Source: Spirochaetota bacterium
Lineage (GTDB): Bacteria > Spirochaetota > Spirochaetia > CADAEX01
Assembly: GCA_009786125.1 (NCBI GenBank)
Contig: WQTU01000138.1
Span: forward strand, 12,721-76,720
Direction: 5' to 3'
DNA: 64,000 bases
The position numbers were made by a program, and so were the translations under genes. Under the pieces are notes generated by a model. That model had not been told where the DNA came from. It searched no databases and was given only the letters and a program-made list of their open reading frames with translations. Positions 1,035 through 60,112 of the stretch are shown piece after piece; position 1 is the first letter of the stretch; every line of letters begins with the position of its first letter.

Positions 1035-2266
1035 TGAATAAAGTTTTAGCGCTGCTTCAGGAGCGCGGGTTTGTAAAACAGTGTACAAACCTGGAGCTTC
1101 TCGACAGCAAACTTACGAACAGCCAGCTTACATTTTACTGCGGATTTGATCCAACAGGACCAACTCTTCACGCAGGACACCTTGTCCCGCTTTTTGCAAT
1201 GGCGCATTTGAGCAAAGCCGGGCACAAGGCAATAGCTCTTGTTGGCGGCGGAACAGCAAGAATCGGAGACCCTTCCGGCAAAATAGAGATGAGAAAAATC
1301 ATCTCTAACGAAGAAGTAAAAGCAAATGCACAAAGCATTAAAAAGCAAATAGAAAAGTTTATAGACTTTAGCGAAAACAAAGCAATGCTTGTAGATAACG
1401 CAGACTGGCTTACGAATTTAAACTATATAGATTTTTTGCGCGAGATTGGCTGCCACTTTTCTGTAAACAGAATGCTTAGTTTTGAGACATATAAAAACAG
1501 GCTTGAGCATGGGCTTTCGTTTATTGAATTTAATTACCAGCTTTTGCAATCTTACGATTTTCTTGTTTTAAGAAGAAATTACAATTGCGAGATGCAGATA
1601 GGCGGAGATGATCAGTGGGGGAATATTGTTGCCGGCGCAGATCTTATAAGAAGAATGGATAGCAAAGAGGTTGTCGGACTTACTTTTCCTTTGGTAACGC
1701 GCTCGGATGGAAAGAAAATGGGAAAAACAGAAAAAGGCGCTCTTTTTCTTGATCCTAATGTTGTTTCTCCTTACGAATTTTTCCAGTATTGGAGAAATGT
1801 TGCAGATGCAGATGTTGAAAAATTTCTTTACCTTTATACATTTTTGCCCGGCGAGGAAATTCGGGAACTTGGAAAGCTTAAAGACCAGGAAATAAACAGG
1901 GCAAAAGAAATTCTTGCTTATGAGATAACGAAGATAATACATGGCGAAGAAGAGGCGGAAAAAGCAAAAGAAGCGGCAGGCGCTGCATTCGGCGGAGGAG
2001 CAGACGGAGATAAATCTTCGATTCCGTCGATAGAGATTCAGGAGTTTGAATTAACAGCAGGAATAAATGTTATTGACCTTTTTGCAAAAACAACTTTGTG
2101 TGAATCAAAAGCAGAAGCCAGAAGGCTGGTAACCCAGGGCGGAGCAGTGGTGTCCGAAGAAAAAATATCAAGCGTAGATGCTGTAATTGATTCTTCCTAT
2201 ATAAGGGATGGAGAAATTATGCTAAAAGCCGGAAAAAAAAGGTATTTTAGGTTAATTGTAAAATGA
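1034..2266 (+). CDS. tyrS: tyrosyl-tRNA synthetase
   Basis: HLGHL-type HIGH motif (LHAGHLVPL), KMGKTE (KMSKS) motif and a C-terminal S4-like domain; 410 aa. Confidence 0.95.
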   Translation: MNKVLALLQERGFVKQCTNLELLDSKLTNSQLTFYCGFDPTGPTLHAGHLVPLFAMAHLSKAGHKAIALVGGGTARIGDPSGKIEMRKIISNEEVKANAQSIKKQIEKFIDFSENKAMLVDNADWLTNLNYIDFLREIGCHFSVNRMLSFETYKNRLEHGLSFIEFNYQLLQSYDFLVLRRNYNCEMQIGGDDQWGNIVAGADLIRRMDSKEVVGLTFPLVTRSDGKKMGKTEKGALFLDPNVVSPYEFFQYWRNVADADVEKFLYLYTFLPGEEIRELGKLKDQEINRAKEILAYEITKIIHGEEEAEKAKEAAGAAFGGGADGDKSSIPSIEIQEFELTAGINVIDLFAKTTLCESKAEARRLVTQGGAVVSEEKISSVDAVIDSSYIRDGEIMLKAGKKRYFRLIVK

Positions 2267-3543
2267 GCCCAAAAAGACTTTTTGTCTCGATCGCGGCGCG
2301 CCAAGACACTGCGTTCGTGCTGCGCGCAAGACGCGGCATCCATGCCGCAATACTATTCTTTATTGTAATAGCGTATTCTCATGCACAAACGTCTGTGGAC
2401 AGCGAAGGCAGGTTTACGCCGATTTTTATGTATCCCGGTAACTTTCAGACAAGAACCGTATACAATCTAAGTATAAGGGAAAATAATAGATTTATTGCGC
2501 ATATGGTTAGGGAAGTGCGGGAAAGATATTCGCTTGTTGCGCAAACCGAGGATGAAAAAAAATTCGCAGGGACAGCCTTTATTTTTGAAACGCGGCAAAG
2601 GGGCGGGGTACCGGTTGCTAGGAGAATAGAGAATATAGTTAACGGAAGTTTTACTGTAGACCTGCATGGCGGTGTTGAAAGAGCGGATAACTCATATTTT
2701 CCTTTGCGCGTTGGGTTTCCTGTTTTTCCGAAAATGCAGGGCGTAAGACCCGGAGAAAGATGGATAGCAGAAGGCGAGCTTTTCGTAGACCCGCTGAGGA
2801 CCGGGCATTTTACAAGATTAAATATTATCGCGGAATACACATATACCGGGATAACGCACTTTCAGGGGATAGAGGTACATGCAATAACTGCGCAATACGC
2901 TTTGCGGTACCGCATGGGGGATGACCCGTACGGTGATGAGAATTTGCAAAGTGTTTCCGGCACGCACAGAATTACGATTTATCTTAGGACAGAAGACGCG
3001 CGGCCTTTTTTTATACAGAACAATATTACCGAAACTTATACGTTCGAAGGTTTAACTATTTCCAAACAGGGCTTTTCTCACACATGGTACACTGATGTAA
3101 CTCCAATGAGGCGCGATGTTGTAAAAAGGGGTCTTATGGACTCTATAATCGAAAGTACGCTGGATAACGAAGATTTCGAAATTACCGAAAGAGAAATTGG
3201 GGTCTCCTTAACTACCAGTAACATACATTTTGTTCCGGACAGCGCCGAGCTGCTGCCGGGCGAAAATCAAAAAATAGAGGTTATAGCTGCAATTTTGAGA
3301 AGAGTTCCGGACAGAACTTTTCTTGTTGTAGGCCATACTGCGGATGTTGGCACCAGAGAGAGCCAAATGACGCTTTCTGTGCAAAGAGCGGAAAGCATTG
3401 CCAGGCTTCTTACGCAGAGCGGTATAAGCGCAGAGAGAATTCTTTTTACAGGCAAAGGCGGAACCGAGCCGGCTGCGGATAACAGCATAGAAGAGGGGCG
3501 AGCCAGAAACCGCCGGGTTGAGATTATTATACTTGAGGATTAA
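2263..3543 (+). CDS. OmpA-family protein (C-terminal OmpA/MotB peptidoglycan-binding domain)
   Basis: The C-terminus (NIHFVPDSAELLP...LVVGHTADVGTRESQMTLSVQRAESIARLL...RRVEIIILE) is an OmpA-like domain; the N-terminus is hydrophobic. Confidence 0.75.
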   Translation: MSPKRLFVSIAARQDTAFVLRARRGIHAAILFFIVIAYSHAQTSVDSEGRFTPIFMYPGNFQTRTVYNLSIRENNRFIAHMVREVRERYSLVAQTEDEKKFAGTAFIFETRQRGGVPVARRIENIVNGSFTVDLHGGVERADNSYFPLRVGFPVFPKMQGVRPGERWIAEGELFVDPLRTGHFTRLNIIAEYTYTGITHFQGIEVHAITAQYALRYRMGDDPYGDENLQSVSGTHRITIYLRTEDARPFFIQNNITETYTFEGLTISKQGFSHTWYTDVTPMRRDVVKRGLMDSIIESTLDNEDFEITEREIGVSLTTSNIHFVPDSAELLPGENQKIEVIAAILRRVPDRTFLVVGHTADVGTRESQMTLSVQRAESIARLLTQSGISAERILFTGKGGTEPAADNSIEEGRARNRRVEIIILED

Positions 3544-3555
3544 CGCGGTGTTGTC

Positions 3556-4230
3556 TTGGTAAAACATATTCTTTTTGATGCAGACCAGACTTTATACCCT
3601 GCTTCTTCCGGCGTTGAAGCAGAGATGATACGGCGCATGAATATTTTTGTGGCAGAGTATCTTGGGGTTTCTGTTGAAGAGGCTAAATCTTTAAGAGCAA
3701 ACAGAGATAAAAAACATAACTCAACGCTCGAATGGCTGCAAAATGCCAAAGGGCTTGATAACCCGGAACCTTTTCTTGCAGCTACGCACCCCACGGATTT
3801 TGAAAACTTTTTTCCGAAAAATCCTGCTTTGATTAACTTGCTTTCGAAAATTACAGTGCCCTGCTCGATTTTTACCAATTCATGGGCGCGCCATGCAAAA
3901 AACATTCTGAAATACCTTGAAATTTCCCAATTTTTTACAAATATCTTTGACCTGTGTTTTAACAACTACTTTGGAAAGCCGCATCTCTCTGCATTTACAA
4001 ATGTTCTTGATTTTCTTGGGCTTGAGGCAAAAGATGTGCTTTTTATTGATGATGTAAAAAAGTTTACAGATATTTTCCATTCTCTTGGCGCTAATGTAAT
4101 TCTTGTTGATGAATTAAAAGTCCACCGCCACCCCCTGGGGATTTTTAATAAATATGATGCAAAAAAATATGATAAGGTGTATTATATAGAAGAAATAGAG
4201 CCCATCCTTGAAAAATTAAAGGTCATTTAA
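3556..4230 (+). CDS. HAD-superfamily hydrolase (pyrimidine 5'-nucleotidase-like), TTG start
   Basis: ILFDADQTLY (HAD motif I DxD) and FIDDVKK (motif IV). Confidence 0.7.
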   Translation: MVKHILFDADQTLYPASSGVEAEMIRRMNIFVAEYLGVSVEEAKSLRANRDKKHNSTLEWLQNAKGLDNPEPFLAATHPTDFENFFPKNPALINLLSKITVPCSIFTNSWARHAKNILKYLEISQFFTNIFDLCFNNYFGKPHLSAFTNVLDFLGLEAKDVLFIDDVKKFTDIFHSLGANVILVDELKVHRHPLGIFNKYDAKKYDKVYYIEEIEPILEKLKVI

Positions 4231-8221: not shown

Positions 8222-8355
8222 GAAAAGCAGCGGCCAACGCGCCGGCTGTTTTCTGCGCCCCCTCCTTGCGGGCGCTTTATATCATCAATTTCAATTATCA
8301 TCTTTATTAAAAACCGCAAAATACCTTAATCTGAAAAAACCCGGTCGCAAAACCC
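8222..8355. repeat. 134-bp direct repeat copy 1 (downstream flank of cyclase-like gene 1)
   Basis: About 85% identical to 9205-9338 (aaagcagcggccaacgcgccggctg...tttatatcatcaatttcaattatcatcttta...ggtcgcaaaa). Confidence 0.8.
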
Positions 8356-8423
8356 ACCTTATTTACCGACAAAGCGAGAACCGCGGACAAGCTGCCTGGC
8401 GGTCGCTTTGCGCGTAATACCAT

Positions 8424-9080
8424 TTATTTTTTGTTATAAAACAGCGCATGTTCGTAATCTTCTTTTTTTAACCCTTTTATTCCGTGCAGCTTTTTTATAG
8501 TCTCCGGCGAGTCATCAACCCTAACCGGTACAAAGCCTAATTTTGCAGCAGAGGCATTTAATATCAAATTGTTGATGCTGGCTGCCGACTGCAATCTGCA
8601 GGCAAGGTTAATACCATATCCAATATAATCGCGGTACTTGAGCTGCGATATCTCGGCAGATATTTCGTACTTAAACACCTGTTCATTAACAAGCGCTCCT
8701 GCCAGCCCCATATCCGGGTATGACTTAAATAAATCTTTAGTTAAGAAATCTGTGTATGTATTAAATATGGCAAGCGCTTCCTCTGTCGAATATTTATCGT
8801 TCTTGTCCCAAATAACGAGCGCGCCGTCTCCCATAAGCTTGTAATATGAGCAGCCATGTCCAAAATGATTTATACAAGCCAAAAAGTTTGTTGTAAATTC
8901 CTTAATAAGCTTGCAAATGGCATCGCTTGTCTGGGATGATAAAAAATTGCTAAAATTACGAATATCGACGCATAGAATAAGCGCATTTTTACAGACTTTG
9001 TTTAAATATATGCCATCGAAAAGATCGATCGGCATTTTTTTAAGCCCGTCAAGGGAAGCAGTTTTTATTGCGGGTTTCAT
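8424..9080 (-). CDS. minimal class III nucleotidyl (adenylyl/guanylyl) cyclase-like protein, paralog 1
   Basis: Motifs LCVDIRNFSNF (FxDIxGFT-like, metal Asp), YKLMGDGALVIW (KxxGD, specificity Lys and second metal Asp) and YRDYIGYGINLACRLQS (DxxGxxVNxAxR, catalytic Asn/Arg); 218 aa, no other domains; own RBS aaaggag. Confidence 0.6.
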   Translation of the reverse strand: MKPAIKTASLDGLKKMPIDLFDGIYLNKVCKNALILCVDIRNFSNFLSSQTSDAICKLIKEFTTNFLACINHFGHGCSYYKLMGDGALVIWDKNDKYSTEEALAIFNTYTDFLTKDLFKSYPDMGLAGALVNEQVFKYEISAEISQLKYRDYIGYGINLACRLQSAASINNLILNASAAKLGFVPVRVDDSPETIKKLHGIKGLKKEDYEHALFYNKK

Positions 9081-9204
9081 AAATCTCCTTTGATCTCCTT
9101 TGCGAATCTAAGGAATTGCTGATTAAGAACCTACCATTTTAAAAAATTAATAGCAGGTTCTATTTGATTCTAATCAGCTGTTTCCTAATTCGCTTTTTCG
9201 TTCA

Positions 9205-9338
9205 AAGCAGCGGTCAACGCGCCGGCTGTATTCTCCGCCCTTCCTTCAGGCGCTTTATATCATCAATTTCAATTATCATCTTTATAAAAATGTGCAGAAT
9301 ACCTTAAAGTGAAAAAAGCGGGTCGCAAAATACACCCT
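9205..9338. repeat. 134-bp direct repeat copy 2 (upstream flank of cyclase-like gene 1)
   Basis: See copy 1 at 8222-8355. Confidence 0.8.
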
Positions 9339-9575
9339 TTTTGACAGGCTGATGAGATAGGTTTGTAGTTATACCGCGCACAAAGGCACAGCGGCACTAA
9401 GTTTTTTGGATGTGCTCAAAATCCCATTCCAATACACGACCATACCACTCTTTCCAAGGTAAGCTTGCAGCTGGTGCGTGAGCCATCCGCAGTGTCAGCG
9501 AGGACTCTGGCGAATCGCAACAGCCGCAAGCCGGGCGATAACGCGGTCGGCAAAGCCGACGGGTGGTGGAATTTC

Positions 9576-12182
9576 TTAGATTAGTTTTTTTTCCACAGCG
9601 ATGCGAATTAGGTCTGCCAGGTTTTTAGCGCCTGCTTTTGAGTAGATCATGTTGATCACCATTTTTACAGTATTAATCGAAAGGTTGTGGTTTTCTGCAA
9701 TTTCTGCACGCGAAAGACCGTGGGAAAGATCCAGGAGGATTTCGGTCTCCCTTGTCGATAGAGCGATATTGTCTGTAATATGCTTGACCTGCTTGTATTC
9801 TGTAACTACATGAGCCTGGCGTTTGGCATAGGTCGCGGCTTTTCGGTTGATTTTTTCCAGCCATGCTTTTGGGATAGCCGAAGCTGTATGCCGAAGATTT
9901 AGATGTGGATTTATTTCTGTTCCAGCAATATTCGGCGCCGCGGCAACAGCAGCGCCGCCTTCCTTTGCTGCCGCAGAAGTAAGAGTGCGCATATCTTTGC
10001 CCAGTTCAATAAAAGGCATCACAATATCATTAGGCTCTGCTGCCTTATAAGCCTCCAGCAGAGCAGCAAAAGCTTTTTTTTTGTCCTTCAGTTTATAATG
10101 CACACAAGCTTCCATTGCCAGCATTTCTATCCTGCCAAAGAGAAACGACTCCCGCTGCTTCATTTCCTGAATATACGCAAGAAGAGGAGAAAAGTTTCTT
10201 GTCATATAACAAAAGCGCGCTTTTAGCTGATTCCCAAAATTTTCAGTAAAAGCAGCATGGTCATAGGAAGAAAAATTTTCTTTAAGCCAGGCAGGCACAT
10301 TTTCCGGCAGGTCCAGAGCATAGTAATACCATGCAAGAGAAATATCGTAATTGATATAACGATGAGTATATTCATTTTCATCCAACTGATTTTTTGTTTC
10401 TTTCAGCGCCATTTCTGCATTTTCAAAATCCCCTTGCGCAAAGCTTATTCGCAAAGTATAAAGCAAAGCCCTGTGTGCAAACTCAAACTGTTTGTGCTTT
10501 GCTGCAAGGGAGAAAGCAAGAGCAATAAATTTTTCTGCTTCGCGTAAATCTCCCTGGTAAAACTTTAGCTCTCCCTTTGCCAGCTCGCTCTCTCCTGTTT
10601 CAATGTTATTAAAGCAGAGCGAGATAAAGTTAGATGCGCGGGTTAATGCACCGATAAATTTTTCAATAGCCCCTTTTTTGGGAGTGCCAACGCCGCAGAT
10701 CCATGCTCCCGGGCAGCGATTCGCGTATTTGCTGGGATCTGTAGGTCCCAAAAGGCAGTTGTAATATTTTTCAAAGTAAAGGTCAAAATCAAAGTTGTCG
10801 TCTGTTAGGCTCACTAAAAGGCGCAGAAAACCCCAGCAGTAATAGAGACCGCCCAAAGTGCGCTTCCTGAAAAGGCTATTTTTTGGCAGTTTGATGAATT
10901 TTGCCTCATAATATTCTGCCAGCTCAAGCGATTTTTGCCAGAGCCCCAGGCACATATAGCAGCGCAAGTGCATTATAGCAAGGAATTCCACTGTATCAAA
11001 AACCTCCGAAGGAGCTCTTTCAAAAATTTTTATTGCATATTGCGCAATGTCCGCAGGTATTTGAGCAGGTAACGCAAAAAAAATAGATACTATAGAGCTG
11101 TAGCTTCCTGCTTTTTCATAATAAGAGAGAGCATCTATCTTAAAATAATTCTTGCTGCACCAATCACCGGCAATTAAGTAGGTTTTCCGCTTTTCTTCCG
11201 CCGAGAGGAGCTCTTGTCTTTCAGAGAGAAATTCCAATAACAGATGGTGGATAAGATATGCATTTATATAGCTGTCCCTGCGCACATACGCGCTTTGCTT
11301 TTCCAGCTCGGCAATAAGGCTATCGTCATTTTCTGCCAGAAGATCAATAAGTTCAAAAGAGAGGTGACCAATAAGGGAGAGACGCACCAAAAAATTCTGC
11401 AGCCGGACGGAGACCCCATCCCAAATTTCTGTTTCCATTAGCCGGAAGATACTCGTCTTCATGGCATTGCGCAAATAGCCTTCGTAACCCGGCGCTTTTT
11501 GATACGACCGTGCGATAAGGTTTATTGCAAAGACCCAGCCTTCTGTATCCTGCATGATTCCGTGCAGACAATCTGCCTGAAGAGGAATATTTAGCTTTTG
11601 GAAATATTGAGCAAGTTCATTTTCTGTAAAGCGCAAATCGTTTTCACTTATGTTGAATATCCGGTCTTTGGAAACAAGGCTTGCAATATTGATGGATGGG
11701 GTGGAGCGGGAAATTATAACTATCGAAGTTCCGGGCATATTATGGGAGACACACTCTTCGATAAAATGAATTATAGAAGGATTTTCGATAAAATGAAAAT
11801 CATCAAAAACAATAACTCGCCGTTTAATCTCAGCAAGATCATGCACCAGGGACATGTATTTATTTTTTTTGTCTCTGGTATCCGGAAAACCAAGCTTGCC
11901 AGCTGCTTTGGCAAAAGGCACATTAATTTGCGCAAGAGAATAAGTATAGTTTTCCCAAAACCGCCCCCCCGCATTATCGCGTTCGGAAAGCTGTATCCAT
12001 ATTGTTGCTGTCTTGTACTCCTGCGCAAAGTCAGCAACTGCGCTGGTCTTGCCGTAGCCTGTTCCAGCGCATACAACAACCAGCGGATGACGCACAGCTT
12101 CTGTGAACAATCGGTTTATTCGCGGGCGTTCTAAATGGAAAAGAGAGCGATTTTCGTGGTGCCTTTTGAGTTTGTCTTCCAT
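9576..12182 (-). CDS. MalT-like STAND NTPase / LuxR-family transcriptional regulator (P-loop NTPase, helical/TPR-like region, C-terminal LuxR HTH)
   Basis: N-terminus RINRLF...LVVVCAGTGYGKTS is a Walker A like the MalT N-terminus; 868 aa; C-terminus LSTRETEILLDLSHGLSRAEIAENHNLSINTVKMVINMIYSKAG is a LuxR-type HTH. Confidence 0.8.
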   Translation of the reverse strand: MEDKLKRHHENRSLFHLERPRINRLFTEAVRHPLVVVCAGTGYGKTSAVADFAQEYKTATIWIQLSERDNAGGRFWENYTYSLAQINVPFAKAAGKLGFPDTRDKKNKYMSLVHDLAEIKRRVIVFDDFHFIENPSIIHFIEECVSHNMPGTSIVIISRSTPSINIASLVSKDRIFNISENDLRFTENELAQYFQKLNIPLQADCLHGIMQDTEGWVFAINLIARSYQKAPGYEGYLRNAMKTSIFRLMETEIWDGVSVRLQNFLVRLSLIGHLSFELIDLLAENDDSLIAELEKQSAYVRRDSYINAYLIHHLLLEFLSERQELLSAEEKRKTYLIAGDWCSKNYFKIDALSYYEKAGSYSSIVSIFFALPAQIPADIAQYAIKIFERAPSEVFDTVEFLAIMHLRCYMCLGLWQKSLELAEYYEAKFIKLPKNSLFRKRTLGGLYYCWGFLRLLVSLTDDNFDFDLYFEKYYNCLLGPTDPSKYANRCPGAWICGVGTPKKGAIEKFIGALTRASNFISLCFNNIETGESELAKGELKFYQGDLREAEKFIALAFSLAAKHKQFEFAHRALLYTLRISFAQGDFENAEMALKETKNQLDENEYTHRYINYDISLAWYYYALDLPENVPAWLKENFSSYDHAAFTENFGNQLKARFCYMTRNFSPLLAYIQEMKQRESFLFGRIEMLAMEACVHYKLKDKKKAFAALLEAYKAAEPNDIVMPFIELGKDMRTLTSAAAKEGGAAVAAAPNIAGTEINPHLNLRHTASAIPKAWLEKINRKAATYAKRQAHVVTEYKQVKHITDNIALSTRETEILLDLSHGLSRAEIAENHNLSINTVKMVINMIYSKAGAKNLADLIRIAVEKKLI

Positions 12183-12193
12183 AATATACTAGT

Positions 12194-12967
12194 TTATTTT
12201 TTGTTATAAAACAGTGCAGTCAGGCGGTCTTCTTTTTTTAGACCCTTTAAACAGCGTAACTGGTTTAGAATTTCCGGCGATTCATCGACCTTGACCGATA
12301 CGAACCCGGATTTTGCAATGGAGTCATTTAATATTAGTTTGTTAATCCCAGCCAAAGTCTGTAACCTGCAGGCAAGATTAATGCCATAGCCAACATAATC
12401 GCGGTACTTAAGCTGCGATATCTCGGCAGATATTTCGTATTTGAATATCTCTTCATTAACAAGCGCTCCTGCCAATCCCAAACATGGAAATGGCTTAAAC
12501 AAATCTTCGCTTAAGAATTCGTTATAGTTGTTAAATATAGAAATTGCTTCATTTACTGAGTTTTTAGTGGTTTCCTCCCAAATTATTATGGCTCCGTCTC
12601 CCGTAAGTTTGTAATATGAGCAGCCGGATCCAAAGTGATTGATACAAGCAAGGAGGTTTGTCGTGAATTCCCTGATAAGCTTATAAACAACCTCTTCTGG
12701 GTTGGTAGATAAAAACTTGCTAAAATTACGAGTATCGATACATAAAATAAGCGCATTTTTGAAAGCTTTGCCTAAATATACACCATCGAAAATATCGACC
12801 GGCATTTTATCGAGCCCTGTAAGAGTAGCGGCGTTTATTACTATCTGATTTTTCTTATCTGAAGCCCCAATTCCAGCATGACCCGGGATATGACCGGATA
12901 GGTTTTTATTAACAGTAGAGAACTTAAGAATTTTGTTCTCCGGAGAATTCGCAAAGTTGTTAATCAT
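12194..12967 (-). CDS. minimal class III nucleotidyl cyclase-like protein, paralog 2 (about 40-aa N-terminal extension)
   Basis: Same motifs (LCIDTRNFSKF, YKLTGDGAIIIW, YRDYVGYGINLACRLQT); long stretches identical in DNA to paralog 1 (…atcgcggtacttXagctgcgatatctcggcagatatttcgta…); its stop lies 11 nt before the MalT-like start. Confidence 0.6.
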   Translation of the reverse strand: MINNFANSPENKILKFSTVNKNLSGHIPGHAGIGASDKKNQIVINAATLTGLDKMPVDIFDGVYLGKAFKNALILCIDTRNFSKFLSTNPEEVVYKLIREFTTNLLACINHFGSGCSYYKLTGDGAIIIWEETTKNSVNEAISIFNNYNEFLSEDLFKPFPCLGLAGALVNEEIFKYEISAEISQLKYRDYVGYGINLACRLQTLAGINKLILNDSIAKSGFVSVKVDESPEILNQLRCLKGLKKEDRLTALFYNKK

Positions 12968-13029
12968 ATTATAAGGCTATACAAATATAGTTTTTTTTGC
13001 AATACGAAATTAAATAACCATTGTTTAGG

Positions 13030-13060
13030 AAACCGCTGATTTATTCAATCGAGAATAAAT
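13030..13060. repeat. partial inverted copy of the dispersed GC-rich repeat family
   Basis: ggaaaccgctgatttattcaatcgagaat is the reverse complement of attctcgattggataaatcagcggttccc at about 18868-18896. Confidence 0.5.
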
Positions 13061-13274
13061 CAGCAATACATTATTATCCTTTTTTCGCAGTTTTCTGCAA
13101 GAAAACGAGAAAAAATATGGAAGCACTGATTAGAGTCAAATAAGAACCTACTATGAGCCTATCATATATTTTGTCATTTACACAAAATATATGATAGGCT
13201 CCTATTAATGCCAGATGGCTAAAATAACACCTTTTATTTTGAATCAAAATTCCAAATCCGCAGTTTAGATAAGC

Positions 13275-13934
13275 ATGAAAAAACAAACATCAAAGTATAA
13301 TCATATTTTTAATATATCGCGACTAGAAGAAAAGTCGCAGGCTGTTATCGACTGGAAAAAGCAAATCTCCGAATGGTTGGCGCCTAAAAACCTATTGCAG
13401 GCAAAAGGAAAAACGAGAAAAGAAATATTTGCCTTGTTTGGCAATGAATATGAACCCATTGCCGCAATTCCTCTCAAATATCTCAAATATTTAGGCGATG
13501 ATATTACTAATCAAACAGTCTATTCCGGCAAAGGATATTTTATAGACCATGCAGTCAACCATCATCCGGAAGTAGATGCCGTGGAGTATCAAAAAATTCC
13601 AGATATTTTATCTAATCCAGATGATGTAAAGTTAGATAATAGAAAACCTTCTAGAAATTCCCTTGTTTTCATAAAAAAGCATGAAAAATATGATACAGCA
13701 GTAGTAAGTGTTGATACCACAGACGAAGGCAAGATTGTTATCCACAAAACATACTTTGTAAATAAAAAAAGCCCATATACTCAATTACAAAGTATATGGG
13801 CTAAATCGTCGGACGACGCAAACACGTCCATCAGTCATGCGGGAAACCCCGCATCCGCCGGAAAGCGATTTTCCGCTCTTGACGATACATCTTCACTATC
13901 ATCTAAAAATGACCAAAAGTCAAGCAAAACTTGA
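13275..13934 (+). CDS. hypothetical protein (orphan; Ser/Asp-rich C-terminal tail)
   Basis: 219-aa ORF transcribed divergently from cyclase paralog 2. The central block YFIDHAVNHHPEV...IPDILSNPDDVKLDNRKPSRNSLVFIKK...TAVVSVDTTDEGKIVIHKTYF looks like a small toxin/nuclease-type fold, but this is unconfirmed. Confidence 0.4.
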   Translation: MKKQTSKYNHIFNISRLEEKSQAVIDWKKQISEWLAPKNLLQAKGKTRKEIFALFGNEYEPIAAIPLKYLKYLGDDITNQTVYSGKGYFIDHAVNHHPEVDAVEYQKIPDILSNPDDVKLDNRKPSRNSLVFIKKHEKYDTAVVSVDTTDEGKIVIHKTYFVNKKSPYTQLQSIWAKSSDDANTSISHAGNPASAGKRFSALDDTSSLSSKNDQKSSKT

Positions 13935-14009
13935 AAAGCAGCAAAACTTTGTGCCTATATGCACGACTCAATGGCGACTTCGTGCCTTCGTGCGAACCAA
14001 ATTGTGCCC

Positions 14010-14180
14010 TTAGTGCCTTGCGGCATGGACGCCGCATCCCTGCGCAGCGGCATGGACGCCGCGAAACTAGCGCAGGGTCATGCTAACCTAATTGTGCTAA
14101 AAAGCTTAATAAACAGCAAAACCTTGTGTCTTAGCGCCTTGCGGCATGGACGCCGCGAAACTAGCGCAGGGTCATGCGAA
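14010..14180. repeat. cluster of GC-rich REP-like palindromes (gcggcATGGACgccgc x3; 35-45-bp unit x2)
   Basis: The unit ggcatggacgccgcgaaactagcgcagggtcatgc occurs at about 14050 and 14143; the 16-nt palindrome occurs three times; GC-rich in an AT-rich background. Confidence 0.7.
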
Positions 14181-14360: not shown

Positions 14361-15623
14361 ATGAAATTAAAATTTATTTTAGTAGTAGCTCTTGCAGTTT
14401 TTGTAATAGCTCCTGCTGTGGCAAGTCCTACAGTTACCGGCACCATGAGGATGGGCGTTTTTGGCGATGTAATTGATAACCACTATGTTGGAAGGCTGGA
14501 CAGAGCCAGGCTGATTTTTAGCTCTAATATCGATGAGTACAACACTCTTAGACTGGAACTAAGAGCAGATAGGAATAGAGAGGAACTTGGTACTAACAAT
14601 GTGTATGGTGGTGCTATTCCTATGCTTACTCCTGGGAGGACATTTGCTGACTCTGGTGCTCATGATATGAAGTATGCTATGGCTCTTCATGCTGCTACAG
14701 TAAGAACAAACTGGGCAAGGTTTTTTGGATTCGAAGACACTGTAGGTCTTGCAACTACTGTTGGGATGAATGCATTTACAACATTTAGTAGAGTCGGCGG
14801 TTACACAATTTGGGCTACAGGCAGCCAGGAGCTAGGTATTACCAGAAACCTTGGCGGAAGACTGGATTTAACTATTGCAGACGGTCTTGTAAGACCATAT
14901 ATCGCAGGCAGCGCTTATGCATTTAGAGACAATGATAGCCATGTGTTTGGTTTTCTTGGCGGAGTAGGCTTTGATTTTAACGCAATAGATGTACCTTTAT
15001 GGCTCGAAGCTTTCTTTATCCAGGATGGTGATGAAGACCACAGGGCTTTTGGTGTAGAAGCACAATTTGCAATGGAAGTTGCAGACGACATGAACCTTAG
15101 AATTGGCGGTGTTCTTGATATGCGAAATGCTGCTAACTGGGGTGGCAATCATTGGGGTAATGGAGTTTTTAACCCAGATAATGATTGGTTAGCTGCTTTT
15201 AAAGCATTGGCAGATTTCTCTGCTATGGGTGCAACTTTTGGCGTTGCTTTCTTGGGCATACCTAATGTAGGTCCGGACGACGACATGGGATTAGGAAAAC
15301 TTGCTGTATCTTTTGCTTATAATTTTACGAACTTCTTTACTCTACAGGCTGGGGCTAAGTTTGCTTTTGGCAACTATTCAGAATTTCTAGCTAATGACGA
15401 AGTATTTCTTGGAGCAGAATTTGGAGTTAGATTAAGACCAGGCAGAGTTACTTATGCTTTTGGTTATGTATTTCTTAACGAAGATGCTAACGGCGCTTAT
15501 GCATCCGATACTTGGGGACTTGGCGGTGTTGCAAGCAACGATCTTGGACAAATTATAGGTCGCAGTCGGGCAGCAGCTTTGAATACAGGCGCAATCTTCT
15601 TTGGAGTTAACGCTAGCTTCTAG
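14361..15623 (+). CDS. secreted outer-membrane (beta-barrel-like) protein with signal peptide
   Basis: N-terminus MKLKFILVVALAVFVIAPAVASP is a signal peptide; Gly/aromatic-rich alternating sequence; C-terminal ...GVNASF with terminal Phe; 420 aa. Membership of the treponemal major-sheath (MOSP/Tpr) family is possible but unverified. Confidence 0.5.
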   Translation: MKLKFILVVALAVFVIAPAVASPTVTGTMRMGVFGDVIDNHYVGRLDRARLIFSSNIDEYNTLRLELRADRNREELGTNNVYGGAIPMLTPGRTFADSGAHDMKYAMALHAATVRTNWARFFGFEDTVGLATTVGMNAFTTFSRVGGYTIWATGSQELGITRNLGGRLDLTIADGLVRPYIAGSAYAFRDNDSHVFGFLGGVGFDFNAIDVPLWLEAFFIQDGDEDHRAFGVEAQFAMEVADDMNLRIGGVLDMRNAANWGGNHWGNGVFNPDNDWLAAFKALADFSAMGATFGVAFLGIPNVGPDDDMGLGKLAVSFAYNFTNFFTLQAGAKFAFGNYSEFLANDEVFLGAEFGVRLRPGRVTYAFGYVFLNEDANGAYASDTWGLGGVASNDLGQIIGRSRAAALNTGAIFFGVNASF

Positions 15624-15637
15624 TGTTTAATATTTTA

Positions 15638-15684
15638 TGAGCTTCGGCTCACGTTTAAGAGGGGCTTGCGCCCCTCTTTTTTTA
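15638..15684 (+). terminator. rho-independent terminator
   Basis: Hairpins gagcttcggctc and agaggggcttgcgcccctct followed by T7. Confidence 0.75.
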
Positions 15685-15774
15685 GTTCTTTGTGTCGTGT
15701 ACTAAAAATGATAACTGATGCCTGCTTGTTTTATAATGCTGTTCGCAGTAAATCTTGCTTTTATTTGTTGACGT

Positions 15775-15850
15775 AACGAGGGTCGCGGGCAAACAAAGTT
15801 TGCACACAAAGTACCCCTTGCGGGTGTGACCGAGTGAGGAGACAAACAAA
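15775..15850. repeat. inverted copy of the dispersed GC-rich repeat family
   Basis: The reverse complement closely matches 53325-53390 (ggtcacacccacaaggggtactttgtgtgcaaact.cgtttgcccgcga). Confidence 0.7.
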
Positions 15851-15855
15851 ATGTT

Positions 15856-15999
15856 TTATACATTTATTTTAGTTGGTACTGGGAAAGAATGATTATTTAC
15901 AGGGCTATGCCATATATCATGGCTACCCTTGCCGTGACGTACAAAATAGCAGCCGTTTTCTTTAAGGATTTTACGCACCTTTTTTTCATATTCTGCCAT
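15856..15999 (-). CDS. hicA: HicA-family mRNA interferase toxin (47 aa; below the ORF-track size cutoff)
   Basis: Translation MAEYEKKVRKILKENGCYFVRHGKGSHDIWHSPVNNHSFPVPTKINV has the HicA signature (K..L...G......GSH..........VP); its ATG overlaps the upstream hicB stop by 1 nt (TAATG). Confidence 0.7.
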   Translation of the reverse strand: MAEYEKKVRKILKENGCYFVRHGKGSHDIWHSPVNNHSFPVPTKINV

Positions 16000-16287: not shown

Positions 16288-16395
16288 TTATTTCCAAATT
16301 GGGCGCGCAAGCCTATCTTCCTTGCCAATTTCACGCGCAGACTCCAGGCGCAGCTCAATATATTCCTCTCTGGCTATTTTCAATAGACTTTTCAT
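16288..16395 (-). pseudogene. degenerate third copy of the rpn C-terminal unit (35 codons; MKSLLKIAREEYIELRLESAREIGKEDRLARPIWK)
   Basis: My own translation; its start overlaps the stop of the 67-aa ORF (ATGA). Confidence 0.5.
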
Positions 16396-16595
16396 AACTT
16401 CTCTACTTCTTCGATGGGAAGTCCAACTCCTTCAGCTATTTGTTCAAGCGAAAGTCCCATAGCTTTGAATTTTCGAGCTGTTTCGAGCAATTTTTCTCTG
16501 CCTTCGGCAAGCCCTTCTTCCTTGCCAATTTCACGCGCAGATTCCAGGCGCAGTTCGATATACTCTTCTCTGGTTATTTTCAATAGGCTTTTCAT
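16392..16595 (-). CDS. stand-alone RpnS-like small protein (duplicate of the Rpn C-terminal domain)
   Basis: The 67-aa MKSLLKITREEYIELRLESAREIGKEEGLAEGREKLLETARKFKAMGLSLEQIAEGVGLPIEEVEKL is 64/67 aligned to the last 64 aa of Rpn; its ATG overlaps the rpn stop (ATGA). Confidence 0.6.
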   Translation of the reverse strand: MKSLLKITREEYIELRLESAREIGKEEGLAEGREKLLETARKFKAMGLSLEQIAEGVGLPIEEVEKL

Positions 16596-17548
16596 AACTT
16601 CTCTACTTCTTCGATGGGAAGTCCCGTTGCCTCTGCAATTTGCGATAAAGAAAGTCTCATAGTCTTGAGTTTTCGCGCTGTTTCGAGTTTTGCCTTGGCA
16701 AGCCCTTCTTCCTTGCCAATTTCACGCGCAGACTCCAGGCGCAGCTCAATATATTCCTCTCTGGTTATTTTCAATAGGCTTTTCATAACTTCCTCCCCGT
16801 GGGTTTCAAGAAACTTTCTTAATATATTATGTTCTATGCATTCCTTAATGGCAAGCCGAAAAGCTTCCTCAAGCTCTTCTTTTTTGGTTAAGCCTGCCTG
16901 CTTCTCCCTTACAATTTCAACGAATTTTGCAAACTCTCCCAAATCGCGATTTTTTGCCATGAGCCTCTTGTTATGTCCAAGGTTAATATTATACACTTTA
17001 ACCTCAAGTTCGAGATTATACTGGAGATTTGTACAAAAATTTATATTTGTTTCGACAACATCCGGTATACCTTCTTCTATCCCAGCTCTTTTTTTAAATG
17101 CTTGAGAAAGACGCAATGTTGTTTCTTCCGGATATGGCGCTTTGCCATTGTAAAACAAATAAAACTCGGGATTTGGGAGCTCAAGTCCCCGCTCTGCATA
17201 GAGTTCTTTGCGGAGAATCATTTTCTCATACAGAGCTGCTACGTATAACAAAAATCTAATAGGCATATTGGGATTAATAGTTGACTGATGCTCTATCAGG
17301 ACAATGGTTTTGTCGCCAATGGTAAAGGATATATCATTCTTTAAGCCTATGCCTAAGGTTTCCTGTAATGTGTTAATGGTCATTGGGGTTTCTTTGCTGT
17401 AAGAAGAGCCAGTAATGGTATTATAAAGCTCCCTTAGTTTGTTTTGGTCAGAAAACAGCATACAGAACACGCTGTCTTTGTATTTCTTATACTTTGATGT
17501 TTGTCTTTTCATATTACTAGTAACTGCGGATTTGGAAATTTGATTCAA
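16592..17548 (-). CDS. Rpn-family recombination-promoting nuclease / putative transposase (YhgA-like, PD-(D/E)XK)
   Basis: 318 aa with an N-terminal nuclease-like region and the characteristic C-terminal ...LSLSQIAEATGLPIEEVEKL tail. An internal GGAGG(N5)ATG sits at 16784-16798, at the start of the C-terminal 64 codons. Confidence 0.75.
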   Translation of the reverse strand: MNQISKSAVTSNMKRQTSKYKKYKDSVFCMLFSDQNKLRELYNTITGSSYSKETPMTINTLQETLGIGLKNDISFTIGDKTIVLIEHQSTINPNMPIRFLLYVAALYEKMILRKELYAERGLELPNPEFYLFYNGKAPYPEETTLRLSQAFKKRAGIEEGIPDVVETNINFCTNLQYNLELEVKVYNINLGHNKRLMAKNRDLGEFAKFVEIVREKQAGLTKKEELEEAFRLAIKECIEHNILRKFLETHGEEVMKSLLKITREEYIELRLESAREIGKEEGLAKAKLETARKLKTMRLSLSQIAEATGLPIEEVEKL

Positions 17549-17570
17549 AATTCTTTGAAAAAAGACTCTG

Positions 17571-17605
17571 TGTTGGAGTTAACGCTAGCTTCTAGTGTTT
17601 AATAT
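17571..17605 (+). pseudogene. remnant 3' end of an outer-membrane-protein paralog (ttggagttaacgctagcttctagtgtttaatattt = ...VGVNASF*)
   Basis: A 35-nt exact match to 15601-15635 (the end of the 14361-15623 gene plus its stop), followed by its own terminator. Confidence 0.6.
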
Positions 17606-17630
17606 TTGGCGGGGTTAACCTCGTGTTTTA

Positions 17631-18058: not shown

Positions 18059-18061
18059 TTT

Positions 18062-18311
18062 TTACTTCTCCCTGTATACTTGCCCTCTATGAGCTATTTT
18101 GAAAACGTCAATTCTATTTTTTTCTATGTCAAAAAGTATTCGATAGTCTCCAACAACAACACGGTATCCGTCCCGGCCTTGCAGTTTTTTAATGTCTCCT
18201 TCCAAGCGGCTCTCTTTCCAGTTTATCAAGGGCGGCAGTTATGCGGCTTAGATATGGCTCATTCAATCGGTGAAACTGTTTTCTTGCCGTGCTGTTTAGC
18301 TCTACCTTCAT
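18062..18311 (-). pseudogene. relE: RelE/ParE-family toxin gene disrupted by a +1 frameshift
   Basis: Translation gives MKVELNSTARKQFHRLNEPYLSRITAALDKLEREPLG(RRH*); in the +1 frame it continues GDIKKLQGRDGYRVVVGDYRILFDIEKNRIDVFKIAHRGQVYREK, the classic RelE/ParE C-terminus. The extra base is in ccgcttGgaagga. Confidence 0.65.
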
Positions 18312-18689
18312 AATTATATATTTTTCTCTTATATTCATTATACCTATATTATAAAAATATGGTATATCTCTTTTTTTAATTGCCCGCTATATGAAAAGGC
18401 ACCCATAAATGTTTAAAACACTACAAGATAAAAACTTTTTCAAAATGGTTAAAATATCATTTGATACTATAGGCTGGCCAAATGGAATTGATTTAGACCC
18501 AGAAATCCTTTATGAAAAATCGAACTTTGTCTAAAAGATAAATTACTCATTTTGACCTATCACTTTAAAGGTTTTGCAGTGGATTGGGGAAAGCCTGTCT
18601 GTTTTATTAACCTATGGAATCGCTGATTAGATTTGACTCTATCCATATTTTTCTTGTTTTCTTGCAGAAAACTGCGGCACTGCAAAGCA

Positions 18690-18950
18690 GACTGCGCTCG
18701 GTCGAAAAAAACATCGGCTGCGAAAAAAGGATACCGCAGCAAAGCTGCGTTTCCTTATTCGCTCGGTAATGTGCGTGCAAGCCCGCCCGCTACACTCGCT
18801 TCATTCGGAAATAAGGTAAAGCAAGCCCCGTTCGGGATGCTTTGCAATTCTCGATTGGATAAATCAGCGGTTCCCTGCCTTAGGAGCCGAGTGCCGCGGG
18901 CAAGCTGCCTGGTGGTCGCGAAGCGTACCCTTTATTGCGAAAGGATTATA
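18690..18950. repeat. composite copy of the dispersed GC-rich repeat family
   Basis: The first half resembles 53395-53460 (gtgcgtgcaagcccgcccgctacactcgcttcattcggaaataa); the second half resembles 8360-8425 (gcgggcaagctgcctggtggtcgcgaagcgtaccctttatt). Confidence 0.7.
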
Positions 18951-19184
18951 AAAAGCTCTTGAAATATGAAGCTATGTATTATACAGTTAAATATCAGGCC
19001 TTAAGATAGAAATGGAACAAGAGGATAGAGAAGTATTAACACGCCAAACGCATGAAATTTTGTAATTCATTACAGGATAAAGACTTAGCTGACATTGCAT
19101 TAAACCTATGTATTTTGTAATTCTTTGCCTTGTAAGAAGATAGCACAATTCATGCGTTTGACGTGCAAAAACTATCAAAAACAA

Positions 19185-19213
19185 TTGACATAAAATCAGG
19201 TTTTTTATATATT
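19185..19213 (+). promoter_or_regulatory. candidate sigma70 promoter (TTGACA-17-TATATA) for the riboflavin operon leader
   Basis: -35/-10 with a 17-nt spacer about 85 nt upstream of the FMN riboswitch. The motif ttgacgtgcaaaaa at 19157-19170 is also shared with the promoter at 14256. Confidence 0.4.
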
Positions 19214-19297
19214 AAACGCAGATAAATAATACTGTTTATCCACATTTTTTGTGGATGGATAACATTTTTTCGCTTTGAAAGCAGCAAAAATGTGGCT

Positions 19298-19432
19298 TTC
19301 GAGGTCAAATATTAAATTCTTCAGGGCAGGGTGAAAGTCCCTACCGGTGGTAAAGCCCACGAGCCAAAAGGCAGATTCGGTGTGATTCCGAAGCCGACAG
19401 TCAGAGTCTGGATGAAAGAAGATTGACGCATT
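19298..19432 (+). ncRNA. FMN riboswitch (RFN element)
   Basis: TCTTCAGGGCAGGGTGAAAGTCCCTACCGGTGGTAAAGCCCACGAGC...GATTCGGTGTGATTCCGAAGCCGACAGTCAGAGTCTGGATGAAAGAAGA matches the RFN consensus; lies directly upstream of ribD. Confidence 0.9.
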
Positions 19433-19519
19433 TATAATATGCAGAAGCTCTGGGATATATCTATGTTCCGGAGCTTTTTTGTTGCCTGCTGCTGAAGAAC
19501 GTTGCGCGAAGGTGTATTG

Positions 19520-20866
19520 ATGAGTTTTGCAATGTATGAAAAATATATGCAAATTGCTTTGGAGCTTGCAGCTAAGGGCAAGGGAAGAGTTAATCCTAAC
19601 CCTATGGTTGGCGCTGTAATTGTAAAAGATGAAAGAATCATAGGGCAGGGGTTTCACGCAAAGTATGGCGGCGCTCATGCGGAGATAGAGGCATTAAGTG
19701 CTTGTTGCAGCAGCGATGCAGCTGGCGCAACATTGTACGTTACTCTTGAGCCGTGCTGTCATCATGGGAAAACTGCTCCGTGCACAGATGCTATAATCGC
19801 GAGTAAAATCTCAAAAGTTGTGATTGGGTGCATTGACCCTAATGCTCTTGTTAGCGGAAAAGGGATCGAGATTTTAAAGGCTCACGGAATTGAGGTTGAG
19901 ACAGGGATCCTTGAAAAAGAATGCAGGGATTTAAACGAAATATTTTTTTATTATACAAGAACAAAAAAACCATATGTGGTTATGAAATATGCAATGAGTG
20001 CTGATGGCAAAATTGCTACAAGCGGTGGGCAGTCGCAGTGGATAACAGGAGAATTGGCGCGCACTTCGACTCATAGGACGCGGGGTGAGTTGTCTGCAAT
20101 TATGGTTGGCACTGGAACTGTTCTTGCAGATGATCCTTTGCTTACGTGCAGGCTCTCGGATAGGGCGGCGGACAGGTTGCCGGGCGGGGCAGCGGAAATG
20201 GAGACAGGCAAGCGCAAGACAGAGGGTAGAAATCCTGTAAGGATTATTTGCGATACTTCTCTAAGAATACCGCTGGATTCAAGGATTGTCCAAACTGCAA
20301 GAACAGTTCCTACTATTGTGGCAACGGCACGGACGCCGTGCTCGGCGCAGCGACACGTGCAAAGCACGCGCAAAGCGAGTGCCGCTTGCGGGTACGGATG
20401 CCGCGAACGCGATAGCGGACAAGGGCAAGCGCCGGCTACAGCTTCACTTAATTGGGTTTCTGCTGCTTCTGGCGATGCTTCCGGGGCTTCGGGTGTTTGC
20501 AGGAATACAAAGAAAACGCAACTCGAAGCTTTGGGAATCCGGGTGCTCGAAACAAAAATAAGGGATTCGAAACTTGATCTGGAAGACTTAATGCAGCAGC
20601 TTGGAGAACTTGGAATCGACAGTATTCTTCTTGAAGGAGGCGGAACTTTAAACTACAGCGCGCTAGAGCAAGGGATTGTCCGCAAATTGCACATATATAT
20701 TGGAGCAAAAATATTTGGCGGCAAAGAGAGTCTTTCTCCTGTAGAAGGTCTGGGTATAAAAAATATCTCAGACGCTATCGCACTAAAGCTGACTAACGTT
20801 AGCGCAATAGGCGAAGATGTTCTGCTTGAATATGAAGTGGGGGAAACAGAGTGTTTACAGGAATAG
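19520..20866 (+). CDS. ribD: bifunctional riboflavin biosynthesis protein RibD (deaminase/reductase) carrying GC-rich in-frame insertions
   Basis: Deaminase motifs HAEIEAL and PCxHHGKTAPC; reductase C-terminus (LLEGGGTLNYS). ATG at 19520 with RBS aaggtg. The ORF is about 90 aa longer than usual because of the low-complexity segments at about 20150-20228 and 20326-20502. Confidence 0.9.
   Translation: MSFAMYEKYMQIALELAAKGKGRVNPNPMVGAVIVKDERIIGQGFHAKYGGAHAEIEALSACCSSDAAGATLYVTLEPCCHHGKTAPCTDAIIASKISKVVIGCIDPNALVSGKGIEILKAHGIEVETGILEKECRDLNEIFFYYTRTKKPYVVMKYAMSADGKIATSGGQSQWITGELARTSTHRTRGELSAIMVGTGTVLADDPLLTCRLSDRAADRLPGGAAEMETGKRKTEGRNPVRIICDTSLRIPLDSRIVQTARTVPTIVATARTPCSAQRHVQSTRKASAACGYGCRERDSGQGQAPATASLNWVSAASGDASGASGVCRNTKKTQLEALGIRVLETKIRDSKLDLEDLMQQLGELGIDSILLEGGGTLNYSALEQGIVRKLHIYIGAKIFGGKESLSPVEGLGIKNISDAIALKLTNVSAIGEDVLLEYEVGETECLQE
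20326..20502. repeat. GC-rich repeat-like in-frame insertion inside ribD
   Basis: Contains ggcacggacgccgtgc, gggtacggatgccgcg and gcggacaagggcaagcgccggc motifs related to the intergenic GC-rich repeats (for example gcggcatggacgccgc and cgcggacaagctgcctggcggtcgc); encodes ...TPCSAQRHVQSTRKASAACGYGCRERDSGQGQAPATASLNWVSAASGDASGASGVCRNTK... Confidence 0.55.
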
Positions 20867-48897: not shown

Positions 48898-49500
48898 TTA
48901 ATTTCTCAAATTTTCAATTTTCCAGTTGCCATCAATCCTAACCAAATGATACAACACCAGCGGTTGTTCATCAACATACATATATGCTCTTACAGTATTA
49001 TCGTCAATAAATGAAATATTATCAAGACGAACATTTGCTCTGCTGGGAACTACTACATAATCAAAATAATCTCTTAAAGTTCTAAGTACGATCCTATGCC
49101 TTCTTAATACATCGGAAGATTCTGAAATTTGCCTTAGATTATCCCGGTTGCTAAAATGGTCTATATAGTTTTGCGTAAGATAGGTTTTCCATGCTGTAAA
49201 ATTCTCGTTGCGAATAATTGTGTTCAAATCTGCAATAAGAGACTCAACATCCGAAAAAGTTTGCTTATAAACTGCTTCTAAAACATTCTGATTATTGACA
49301 GGCTGCGATACTTTTTCTTCAATTATCGTATCCTGTACCTGTATCATATCCTGTACCTGTATTGTTTTTGTTGTCTCTTTGGTGGCACATGATGTAAGTG
49401 CAATTGTTAAAAAAGAAATAAGAAAAATGCAAATAACATTCTTGAAAACCGTAATATTTTTCATATAATTTATACCCTTGTATCTTTTATAATATAACAT
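48898..49500 (-). CDS. hypothetical lipoprotein
   Basis: Signal peptide plus lipobox-like LTSC; 200 aa. Confidence 0.4.
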   Translation of the reverse strand: MLYYKRYKGINYMKNITVFKNVICIFLISFLTIALTSCATKETTKTIQVQDMIQVQDTIIEEKVSQPVNNQNVLEAVYKQTFSDVESLIADLNTIIRNENFTAWKTYLTQNYIDHFSNRDNLRQISESSDVLRRHRIVLRTLRDYFDYVVVPSRANVRLDNISFIDDNTVRAYMYVDEQPLVLYHLVRIDGNWKIENLRN

Positions 49501-60110: not shown

Positions 60111-60112
60111 AT

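Follow-up and report, generated by a model that had tools for sequence, protein, structure and literature searches.

A dispersed family of modular, GC-rich hairpin repeats in an uncultured spirochaete

The stretch considered here, referred to throughout as the window, comprises 64,000 nucleotides from an uncultured bacterium of the phylum Spirochaetota (contig WQTU01000138.1, positions 12,721 to 76,720). The assignment to spirochaetes is based on the labels of the source records ("Spirochaetes/Spirochaetota bacterium", a metagenome-assembled genome), on a flagellin gene and on an Rpn-family gene of the TIGR01784 type. The window carries an accessory region at 8.1-19.5 kb, which includes genes for a MalT/LuxR-type regulator, an outer-membrane protein (OMP) and an Rpn-family protein and is followed by ribD, and, farther along, the core genes cca and flagellin. 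Short GC-rich repeats lie between these genes and occasionally inside coding sequences. They constitute a dispersed modular family in which hairpin pairing is under selection, elements are present at one and missing from other paralogous sites, units nest in other repeats, near-identical copies stand in new flanks and in-frame copies are tolerated within genes.

GC-rich repeats of the window

Of the 30 intergenic spacers that measure 60 nt or more, seven hold copies of the family; another two copies are located within genes. Six of the seven spacers belong to the accessory region; the elements are concentrated there and in the longest spacers, and occur also beside the core genes cca and flagellin. 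Their orientation with respect to genes is random (11 in the same and 12 in the opposite direction relative to the upstream gene, 10 and 13 relative to the downstream gene). The original prediction, made from the sequence of the window, held that such repeats mark the junctions between gene modules. The clustering at 8.1-19.5 kb on which it relied is real, but the marking of junctions is overstated and holds only in part: the repeats are found in less than a quarter of the spacers and also in genes, and the appearance arises because the elements live in long intergenic spacers, where such DNA is tolerated.

The 64-kb window was compared with itself by BLAST and repeat finding, and each of the five places flagged in the original prediction was found to share sequence with at least one other. 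The segment 8375-8428 resembles 18888-18936 (76% over 54 nt, with a 32-nt core at 88%), the inverted segment 15773-15850 resembles 53316-53394 (84% over 79 nt, E 4e-16), and 18769-18826 resembles 53402-53457 (83%, E 3e-9), while the inverted segments 13027-13056 and 13086-13121 match 18847-18876 (93%) and 18642-18676 (94%), respectively. The signature GCCCGC-N4-CTCGCT, with up to two mismatches, has nine matches in the window against 1.8 expected, six of them in flagged loci, and the 28-nt pattern CCGC-N4-CTCGCTT-N2-T-N4-AAATAA, which is the tail of the element, has three exact matches and one with two mismatches, where 0 are expected. Both signatures are beyond chance, so that the similarity is genuine and does not just reflect GC-rich composition.

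The patches are therefore related repeats, as had been proposed, and the two example motifs quoted for them are present. No unit is common to all flagged loci, however, and each pair shares different modules; the segments of 60-250 bp are related without being copies of one unit of that size. Their GC contrast is modest at a resolution of 200 nt (0.44-0.49 against about 0.38), and the description as GC-rich does not hold for 13030-13060, the 12-bp hairpin at the terminus of a distinct, AT-rich element with inverted repeats (12986-13154). The list of copies was incomplete, as it lacked 14002-14180, 9110-9202, a copy inside a gene at 2289-2350 and another in ribD at 20322-20400.

A D-type element on the minus strand (8359-8423) immediately follows the stop codon of gene 8424-9080. 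It reads TGGTATTACGCGCAAAGCGACCGCCAGGCAGCTTGTCCGC-GGTT-CTCGCTTTGTCGGTAAATAA, carries an exact tail at 8359-8386 and is 88-98% identical to L013, L027, L028, L032 and L017 (loci outside the window are cited by L-numbers). It lies between that stop codon and the segment 8224-8364, which is duplicated at 9204-9342, and it is absent both from the end of the paralogous gene (12186-12210) and from the duplicated segment; the sequence shared with the paralogous flanks stops at the element edges. On the left the element is flanked by AAAAAATAAA, which belongs to the end of the gene itself, and the last nucleotides of the element are AAATAA. The original prediction also suggested that the repeats may have been recombination substrates in the assembly of the island. 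No direct evidence for this emerged: a single duplication end-point (8364) coincides with an element, and it is more readily accounted for if the element was inserted into one of the two copies of the duplicated segment. The paralogous genes, 8424-9080 and 12194-12967 (minus strand), share 77% DNA identity over 300 nt and flank the MalT/LuxR-type regulator gene (9576-12182); they had been termed cyclases, and neither has a Pfam or NCBIfam match.

The remaining intergenic copies differ in composition. Three F-type units on the plus strand (14002-14180), each with the hairpin GCGGC-ATGGAC-GCCGC and assigned to the repeat families D11 and D14, form the most GC-rich intergenic patch of the window (GC 0.56) and are 77-80% identical to L017 4441-4508 and L007 9176-9232. 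At 15759-15868 (minus strand), downstream of the OMP gene's own terminator (15657-15678), an E module with two hairpins, including GCAAAC-NNN-GTTTGC, is followed by a degenerate tail with two mismatches (15761-15788); this is the copy matching 53316-53394 at 84%. An AT-rich element with nested GC-rich units (18601-18885, plus strand) contains an insert at 18677-18722, a B unit made of hairpin, linker and tail (18735-18814, with the exact tail at 18787-18814) and a hairpin unit at 18815-18846, and the same architecture recurs in L042 (89-97%), L005, L023, L029 and L021. It is abutted by an inverted D-type unit (18886-18940, minus strand, with the signature on that strand), 76-88% identical to 8375-8428 and 82% to L017. 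Between cca and the flagellin gene, a composite on the plus strand (53276-53464) joins a unit designated u1, an E module 93% identical to L007 5180-5253, a B module and the tail, and is devoid of the head stem described below. The segment 9110-9202 holds a fragment akin to the terminal hairpin of the AT-rich element (80% to 13104-13154 and to L005 3965-4017).

Two open reading frames (ORFs), 53185-53484 and 18633-18962, had been regarded as spurious, and both indeed consist of repeat sequence; for 53185-53484, a search of 5.8 billion proteins gave no match except itself. That repeat-made ORFs might encode real small proteins was considered and rejected, as the two E copies differ mostly by non-synonymous changes and by an indel.

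Modular anatomy and hairpin pairing

Read side by side, the copies define a canonical form about 60-120 nt in length. Its first part is a head stem, ATAAA(A/G/T)GGT ... ACC(C/T)TTTGT around a variable tip, which is retained in all eight canonical copies; a linker, TTTCCTCATTCGCTCGGT, and at least one small GC-rich hairpin follow, and a conserved, asymmetric 28-nt tail, CCGC-N4-CTCGCTTCATTCGGAAATAA, closes the element. Modules have been gained, lost or duplicated among copies, which gives the family a mosaic structure. Units occur in either orientation, are chained head to tail at the junction AAATAA/GGTA and are also nested in a second, AT-rich inverted-repeat element. Nearly all copies are flanked by ATAAA on the left and by AAATAA at the right end, and these flanks may represent a specific target site or a duplication, or may belong to the element itself.

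Pairing of the hairpins is under selection. The F hairpin has a stem of 5 bp and a 6-nt loop with the conserved sequence AYGGAY, and its stems include four fully complementary versions (GCGGC/GCCGC, GCGAC/GTCGC, GCAAC/GTTGC and ACGGC/GCCGT); compensatory changes affect three of the five pairs, 94.5% of cells are paired and the covariation score was reached by none of 500 shuffles. The core hairpin (6 bp with a loop of 2-3 nt) is GCAAGC-NNN-GCTTGC in some copies and GCAAAC-NNN-GTTTGC in both E copies of the window, and the switch between GCAAGC/GCTTGC and GCAAAC/GTTTGC is bridged by a G-T intermediate in L038. A further hairpin type is CGYGC-AAA-GCRCG.

The AT-rich element that hosts GC-rich units is about 135 nt long and is found without a GC-rich insert at 12986-13154, where it is bounded by terminal inverted repeats (TIRs) of sequence AGGGAAsCrCTGATT, forms three strong hairpins and folds with a z-score of about -5; this copy is 91-95% identical to L043 1-95, L038 7187-7286, L039 4910-5004 and L023 3915-4004. 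GC-rich units are nested in the element at 18601-18885 and in L005, L042, L021 and L023. In the empty form, represented by the 13-kb copy of the window, L043 and L038, GGATA is followed directly by ATAAGGTA, whereas in the filled form, represented by the 18-kb copy, L005 and L042, 82 nt stand between the two. Another AT-rich repeat, the third kind and unrelated to the others, measures about 140 nt (19032-19173, 49492-49646 inverted, L005 291-427 and L045 85-161); it has inverted ends of about 19 nt (CACGYCAAACGCATGAA...) and resembles a classical MITE (a miniature transposable element with inverted repeats).

Copies beyond the window and inside genes

Sequence identical to the window is present in three independent assemblies (JGI, ENA and Logan); the Logan contig stops at 53360, within the E module, as is expected where a repeat lies. 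JGI metagenomes scanned with the tail pattern gave 43 loci, about half of which are chance matches in unrelated, mostly GC-rich contigs. Nineteen loci (18 non-redundant), with a GC content of 0.36-0.47, all come from metagenome JGI20163J15578 and show family modules upstream of the tail in new flanks, in differing combinations and often in the order seen in the window. Together with the window these loci make up 235 kb, in which an all-against-all comparison found 50 repeat intervals, roughly one per 5-7 kb, and a fuzzy search found 27 tails against 0.0 in shuffles. Many of the loci contain three to five intervals although they were selected for one each, so that this density is not just a matter of ascertainment. 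Copies that are 97-100% identical in different flanks point to recent spread. Viral contigs scanned with the B, D and E cores gave no match. The original prediction had named as its refutation a search without additional copies; the search returned these further loci instead, and the placement of the repeats in a dispersed family of the class of repetitive extragenic palindromic (REP) sequences or MITEs is borne out by the recurrence of the same modules in the 18 non-redundant loci.

Family copies also lie in frame within genes. In the OmpA-family gene 2263-3543, which has a Pfam OmpA match, a 60-nt unit (2290-2349, within 2289-2350) lies in the signal peptide and encodes IAARQDTAFVLRARRGIHAA; it contains the minus-strand hairpin GCGGC-ATGGAT-GCCGC and matches L043 1866-1901 at 92% identity across 36 nt and the F module of L007 at 83%. 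At the protein level it is a clean insertion of 20 residues between FVS and ILFFI, absent in the homologues P0124, P0126, P0129 and P0130.

The ribD gene (19502-20866) carries an in-frame insertion of about 58 codons (20322-20506, plus strand), 88-97% identical to L028, L027, L032, L007 and L013. The first 80 nt or so of the inserted sequence (about 170 nt, approximately 20333-20506) consist of the family modules CGGC-ACGGAC-GCCG, GGCGCAGCGACACG, TGCAAAGCACGCGCAAAGCGA and GTGCCGCTTGCGGGTACGGATG, ordered as in intergenic copies and with the reading frame kept open, and BLAST of the repeat library against the window gave a match within the gene at 20325-20385. A second lineage-specific GC-rich insertion of about 20 codons (20159-20227, plus strand), also in frame and seen as gaps in alignments with structures and relatives, is only weakly similar to the family (63% identity to the D core and no significant BLAST match). 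Residues 220-242 and 278-335 are skipped when the protein is aligned with solved RibD structures (PDB), both stretches are absent in relatives that are 68-77% identical over aligned columns, and RibD measures 448-454 aa here against about 365-380 aa in relatives. At other loci in-frame copies were found in proS, where the alignment has a gap of 37 residues, in hflX, in the Hpt-kinase linker of a cheA-like gene and in an outer-membrane barrel gene just past the signal peptide, and a copy is located at the C-terminus of a Mur-ligase-like gene.

An FMN (flavin mononucleotide) riboswitch (Rfam RF00050, 114.7 bits) lies at 19313-19427 on the plus strand, directly upstream of ribD, and thus the spacer 18059-19501 holds both repeats and a genuine regulatory RNA. 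The rib loci of two relatives have differing upstream neighbours; F-like hairpins stand just upstream of ribD in one and are lacking in the other, so the family must be much sparser or absent there. In the former case (L048 9877-10000, with a RibD 65% identical) two tandem F-like double-hairpin units, GCGGC-AAGGAG-GCCGC ... GCGAC-AGGAT-GTCGC, immediately precede the gene, which hints that hairpin modules of the F-like kind are older than the genome from which the window derives.

Several other repeats and duplications were observed. After the Rpn-family nuclease/putative transposase gene (TIGR01784, 16592-17548) its last 95-181 nt recur in two or three extra copies (85-96%; 16307-16792), creating small ORFs that repeat its C-terminus. 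Beside this gene, 17573-17628 matches at 82% the 56-nt segment 15601-15656, in which the OMP gene ends and its terminator region begins. The start and upstream sequence of a PBECR3-nuclease-like gene (13275-13934) duplicate the start of the Rpn-family gene (13236-13300 against 17487-17551, inverted, 86%; MKKQTSKY... against MKRQTSKY...), which suggests a swapped 5' end. A perfect 58-nt tandem duplication (60112-60227, 100%) adjoins, on the upstream side, the start codon of a response-regulator gene (59718-60110, minus strand); it may reflect recent duplication of the promoter or 5' region, or else an artefact of assembly. In L018 a (CAAACAA)n microsatellite of about eight units occurs with similar flanks at the 5' ends of two genes (116-212 and 3536-3597) and is a candidate for phase variation. 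By eye, several family copies seem to adjoin tRNA-like sequence: the copy at L027 1315-1423 would lie just past a tRNA-like 3' end, and those at L028 (about 8362-8400) and L032 (about 1990-2025) beside tRNA-like sequence on the reverse strand.

Nature and probable mobility of the elements

The repeats are a multi-copy family of short, non-coding, modular, hairpin-forming interspersed repeats in an uncultured spirochaete, and very probably selfish and non-autonomous. Their best reading is as non-autonomous repeats similar to REPs and bacterial interspersed mosaic elements (BIMEs), with a tolerance inside genes like that of the Rickettsia palindromic elements (RPEs), and not as small RNAs. REPs and BIMEs, known from enterobacteria and pseudomonads, are short GC-rich imperfect palindromes, single or clustered, forming mosaics, mostly intergenic and present in many copies in both orientations (PMC3184786). 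Palindromes, mosaic structure, copy number, mostly intergenic location and double orientation are common to both systems: the F, core and CGYGC hairpins correspond to the imperfect palindromes of 20-40 nt that form stem-loops, and the 50 intervals and 27 tails in 235 kb to the many copies dispersed singly or as mosaics. The two differ, however, in that there is no sequence relationship, the host here is AT-rich, and the present elements have a fixed asymmetric head and 28-nt tail; nor are they strictly extragenic, with copies in ribD, proS, hflX and the OmpA-family, cheA-like and OMP barrel genes. No GTAG-type tetranucleotide was identified, nor, in about 275 kb of sampled sequence, a gene for a REP-associated tyrosine transposase (RAYT).

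The RPEs are short hairpin-forming repeats of an AT-rich genome, tolerated in frame in unrelated housekeeping genes (PMC10969869). The in-frame copies listed above recall this behaviour, and insertion into unrelated genes shows in ORFs that remain open and in the absence of the inserted residues in homologues. RPEs are, in contrast, whole palindromes of about 100-150 bp with a conserved peptide per family, whereas the elements described here are chains of small hairpins, variable in length and mostly intergenic, in a host of another phylum; the likeness is one of description, and membership is not claimed. Pneumococcal BOX elements (boxA-boxB(n)-boxC) are similar in having conserved start and end modules around a variable number of internal modules, and differ in sequence, in having fewer module types and in the lack of nesting into another repeat. 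Nor are BOX elements known to insert in frame into housekeeping genes. With MITEs and with palindrome-associated elements derived from the insertion sequence (IS) families IS200/IS605 the repeats share small size, non-coding nature, site preference, subterminal hairpins and the lack of obvious inverted ends, the last two of which fit the IS200/IS605 type; neither a parent element nor a transposase was found here. The literature gave no description of this GC-rich hairpin family, although the kind of element is already known.

Other explanations were weighed against this one. Virtually no weight is given to a chance resemblance of GC-rich low-complexity stretches, the other outcome that the original prediction had named as fatal to it: single modules are short, and there are just two copies of each in the window, but E-values go down to 4e-16, the motif counts lie above every shuffle, the tail patterns have no match in any shuffle and the same module orders recur in other contigs, by which chance is already refuted. 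It is highly improbable, though a little less so, that the repeats are scars of local segmental duplication or recombination in the accessory region at 8-19 kb, possibly driven by the Rpn-family nuclease, rather than a genome-wide family. Such an account could draw on the Rpn-family gene itself, on the paralogous genes 8424-9080 and 12194-12967, on the segment pairs 8224-8364 with 9204-9342, 13236-13300 with 17487-17551 (inverted) and 15601-15656 with 17573-17628, and on the location of six of the seven repeat-bearing spacers. As the sole explanation it is refuted by copies that lie at 2.3 and 53 kb of the window and by those in 18 unrelated contigs, where other genes flank them; local duplication may still contribute local copies.

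The original prediction also offered small structured RNAs, either sRNA (small RNA) genes or cis elements such as terminators or mRNA stabilisers, kept for their function. The covarying hairpins, the frequent position of elements just past stop codons and one small hairpin followed by a T-rich run (18735-18749) would agree with this. Against it, an Rfam scan of the window, at gathering thresholds and at E<=1, gave nothing on the elements (its sole matches were the FMN riboswitch and two tRNAs), and minimum free energy z-scores of the GC-rich parts, from single-sequence folding, range from +0.03 to -1.6 and are indistinguishable from shuffles. Predicted intrinsic terminators do not overlap the elements save for one weak hairpin, genes have separate terminators of their own (for example 15657-15678), copies lie within coding sequences, and module content differs from copy to copy. 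Random orientation (11 same, 12 opposite to the upstream gene), the lack of an Rfam match and ordinary folding energies thus favour REP/BIME-like repeats, and a functional RNA is very unlikely. Slightly less so, but still improbable, is that the GC-rich units are classical MITEs, that is, IS deletion derivatives with TIRs, target-site duplications and a DDE transposase. Size, lack of coding capacity, number of copies and preference for intergenic sites agree with this, direct repeats resembling AATAA stand at the flanks, an abundance of MITE-like repeats is reported for Spirochaetes genomes (PMC11602168), and two other families of the window (12986-13154 and 19032-19173) do have inverted ends. 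TIRs are confined, however, to these AT-rich families; the GC-rich elements are asymmetric, their flanking repeat is the same in every copy, unlike ordinary duplications, and no parent IS was seen. As they are without inverted ends, they are not classical MITEs.

Three further candidates were examined and rejected: a degenerate CRISPR array, since the apparent spacers recur at other loci and the spacing is irregular; integron attC sites, since the elements occur in both orientations and in genes; and template or variable repeats of a diversity-generating retroelement, since the substitutions among copies are not adenine-specific.

As selfish non-autonomous DNA, the REP/BIME-like elements would depend for their copying on an enzyme whose gene lies elsewhere in the genome, and would be inserted at A-rich ATAA(A) sequences. 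Such sequences are common at stop codons in this AT-rich genome, and this would account for elements that adjoin the ends of genes. In coding regions only copies that are in frame and free of stop codons, within loops, linkers or signal peptides that tolerate them, would survive. The weakest step concerns the mobiliser, for which a hairpin-recognising single-strand transposase (HUH/Y1, RAYT- or IS200/IS605-like) would be the most likely candidate, as it best fits the subterminal hairpins, the lack of inverted ends, the constant flanking sequence and the head-to-tail chaining; spread by recombination or gene conversion is a possible alternative route. No host function is needed to explain the pattern. 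A more specific proposal, which we regard as tentative and rather unlikely to hold as a whole, would make the family a spirochaete counterpart of the RPE phenomenon, in which an HUH-type enzyme targets ATAA(A) and chains units head to tail, each element regenerating its own target, and in which in-frame peptides are tolerated or exploited in essential enzymes and signal peptides.

Several observations weigh against parts of this interpretation. The ATAA(A) flank pairs in the head stem and may therefore belong to the element rather than represent a target or a duplication, and the GC-rich elements lack TIRs, the head (ATAAAGGGT...) and the tail (...TTCGGAAATAA) not being complementary. No transposase was found near any copy, and a tblastn search of about 275 kb with an IS200 TnpA query gave none, a result that is uninformative for a single-copy gene. 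The set used for F-hairpin covariation was partly picked by a search that requires pairing. GTDB species genomes scanned with the E-core 19-mer gave just two chance matches (Hoylesella and a metagenome-assembled genome of the Acidobacteriaceae), so that this sequence is absent from the species representatives. All the extra copies come from one metagenome, whose contigs may represent several related populations instead of one genome, and the census covers 235 kb of sampled sequence.

The family leaves current concepts unchallenged, and its practical consequences concern annotation and assembly. The repeats create spurious ORFs, one of which has been called as a gene in the ENA assembly, they may break assemblies, as where the Logan contig ends in the E module, and they inflate apparent protein lengths, as in RibD; masking them would help the annotation of such spirochaetes and the binning of their genomes from metagenomes. 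The modules with covarying stems provide a clean set with which to seek the enzyme that moves REP-like DNA in spirochaetes. For the biology of such repeats, the family adds to Rickettsia a second, independent case in which housekeeping genes tolerate hairpin repeats in frame.

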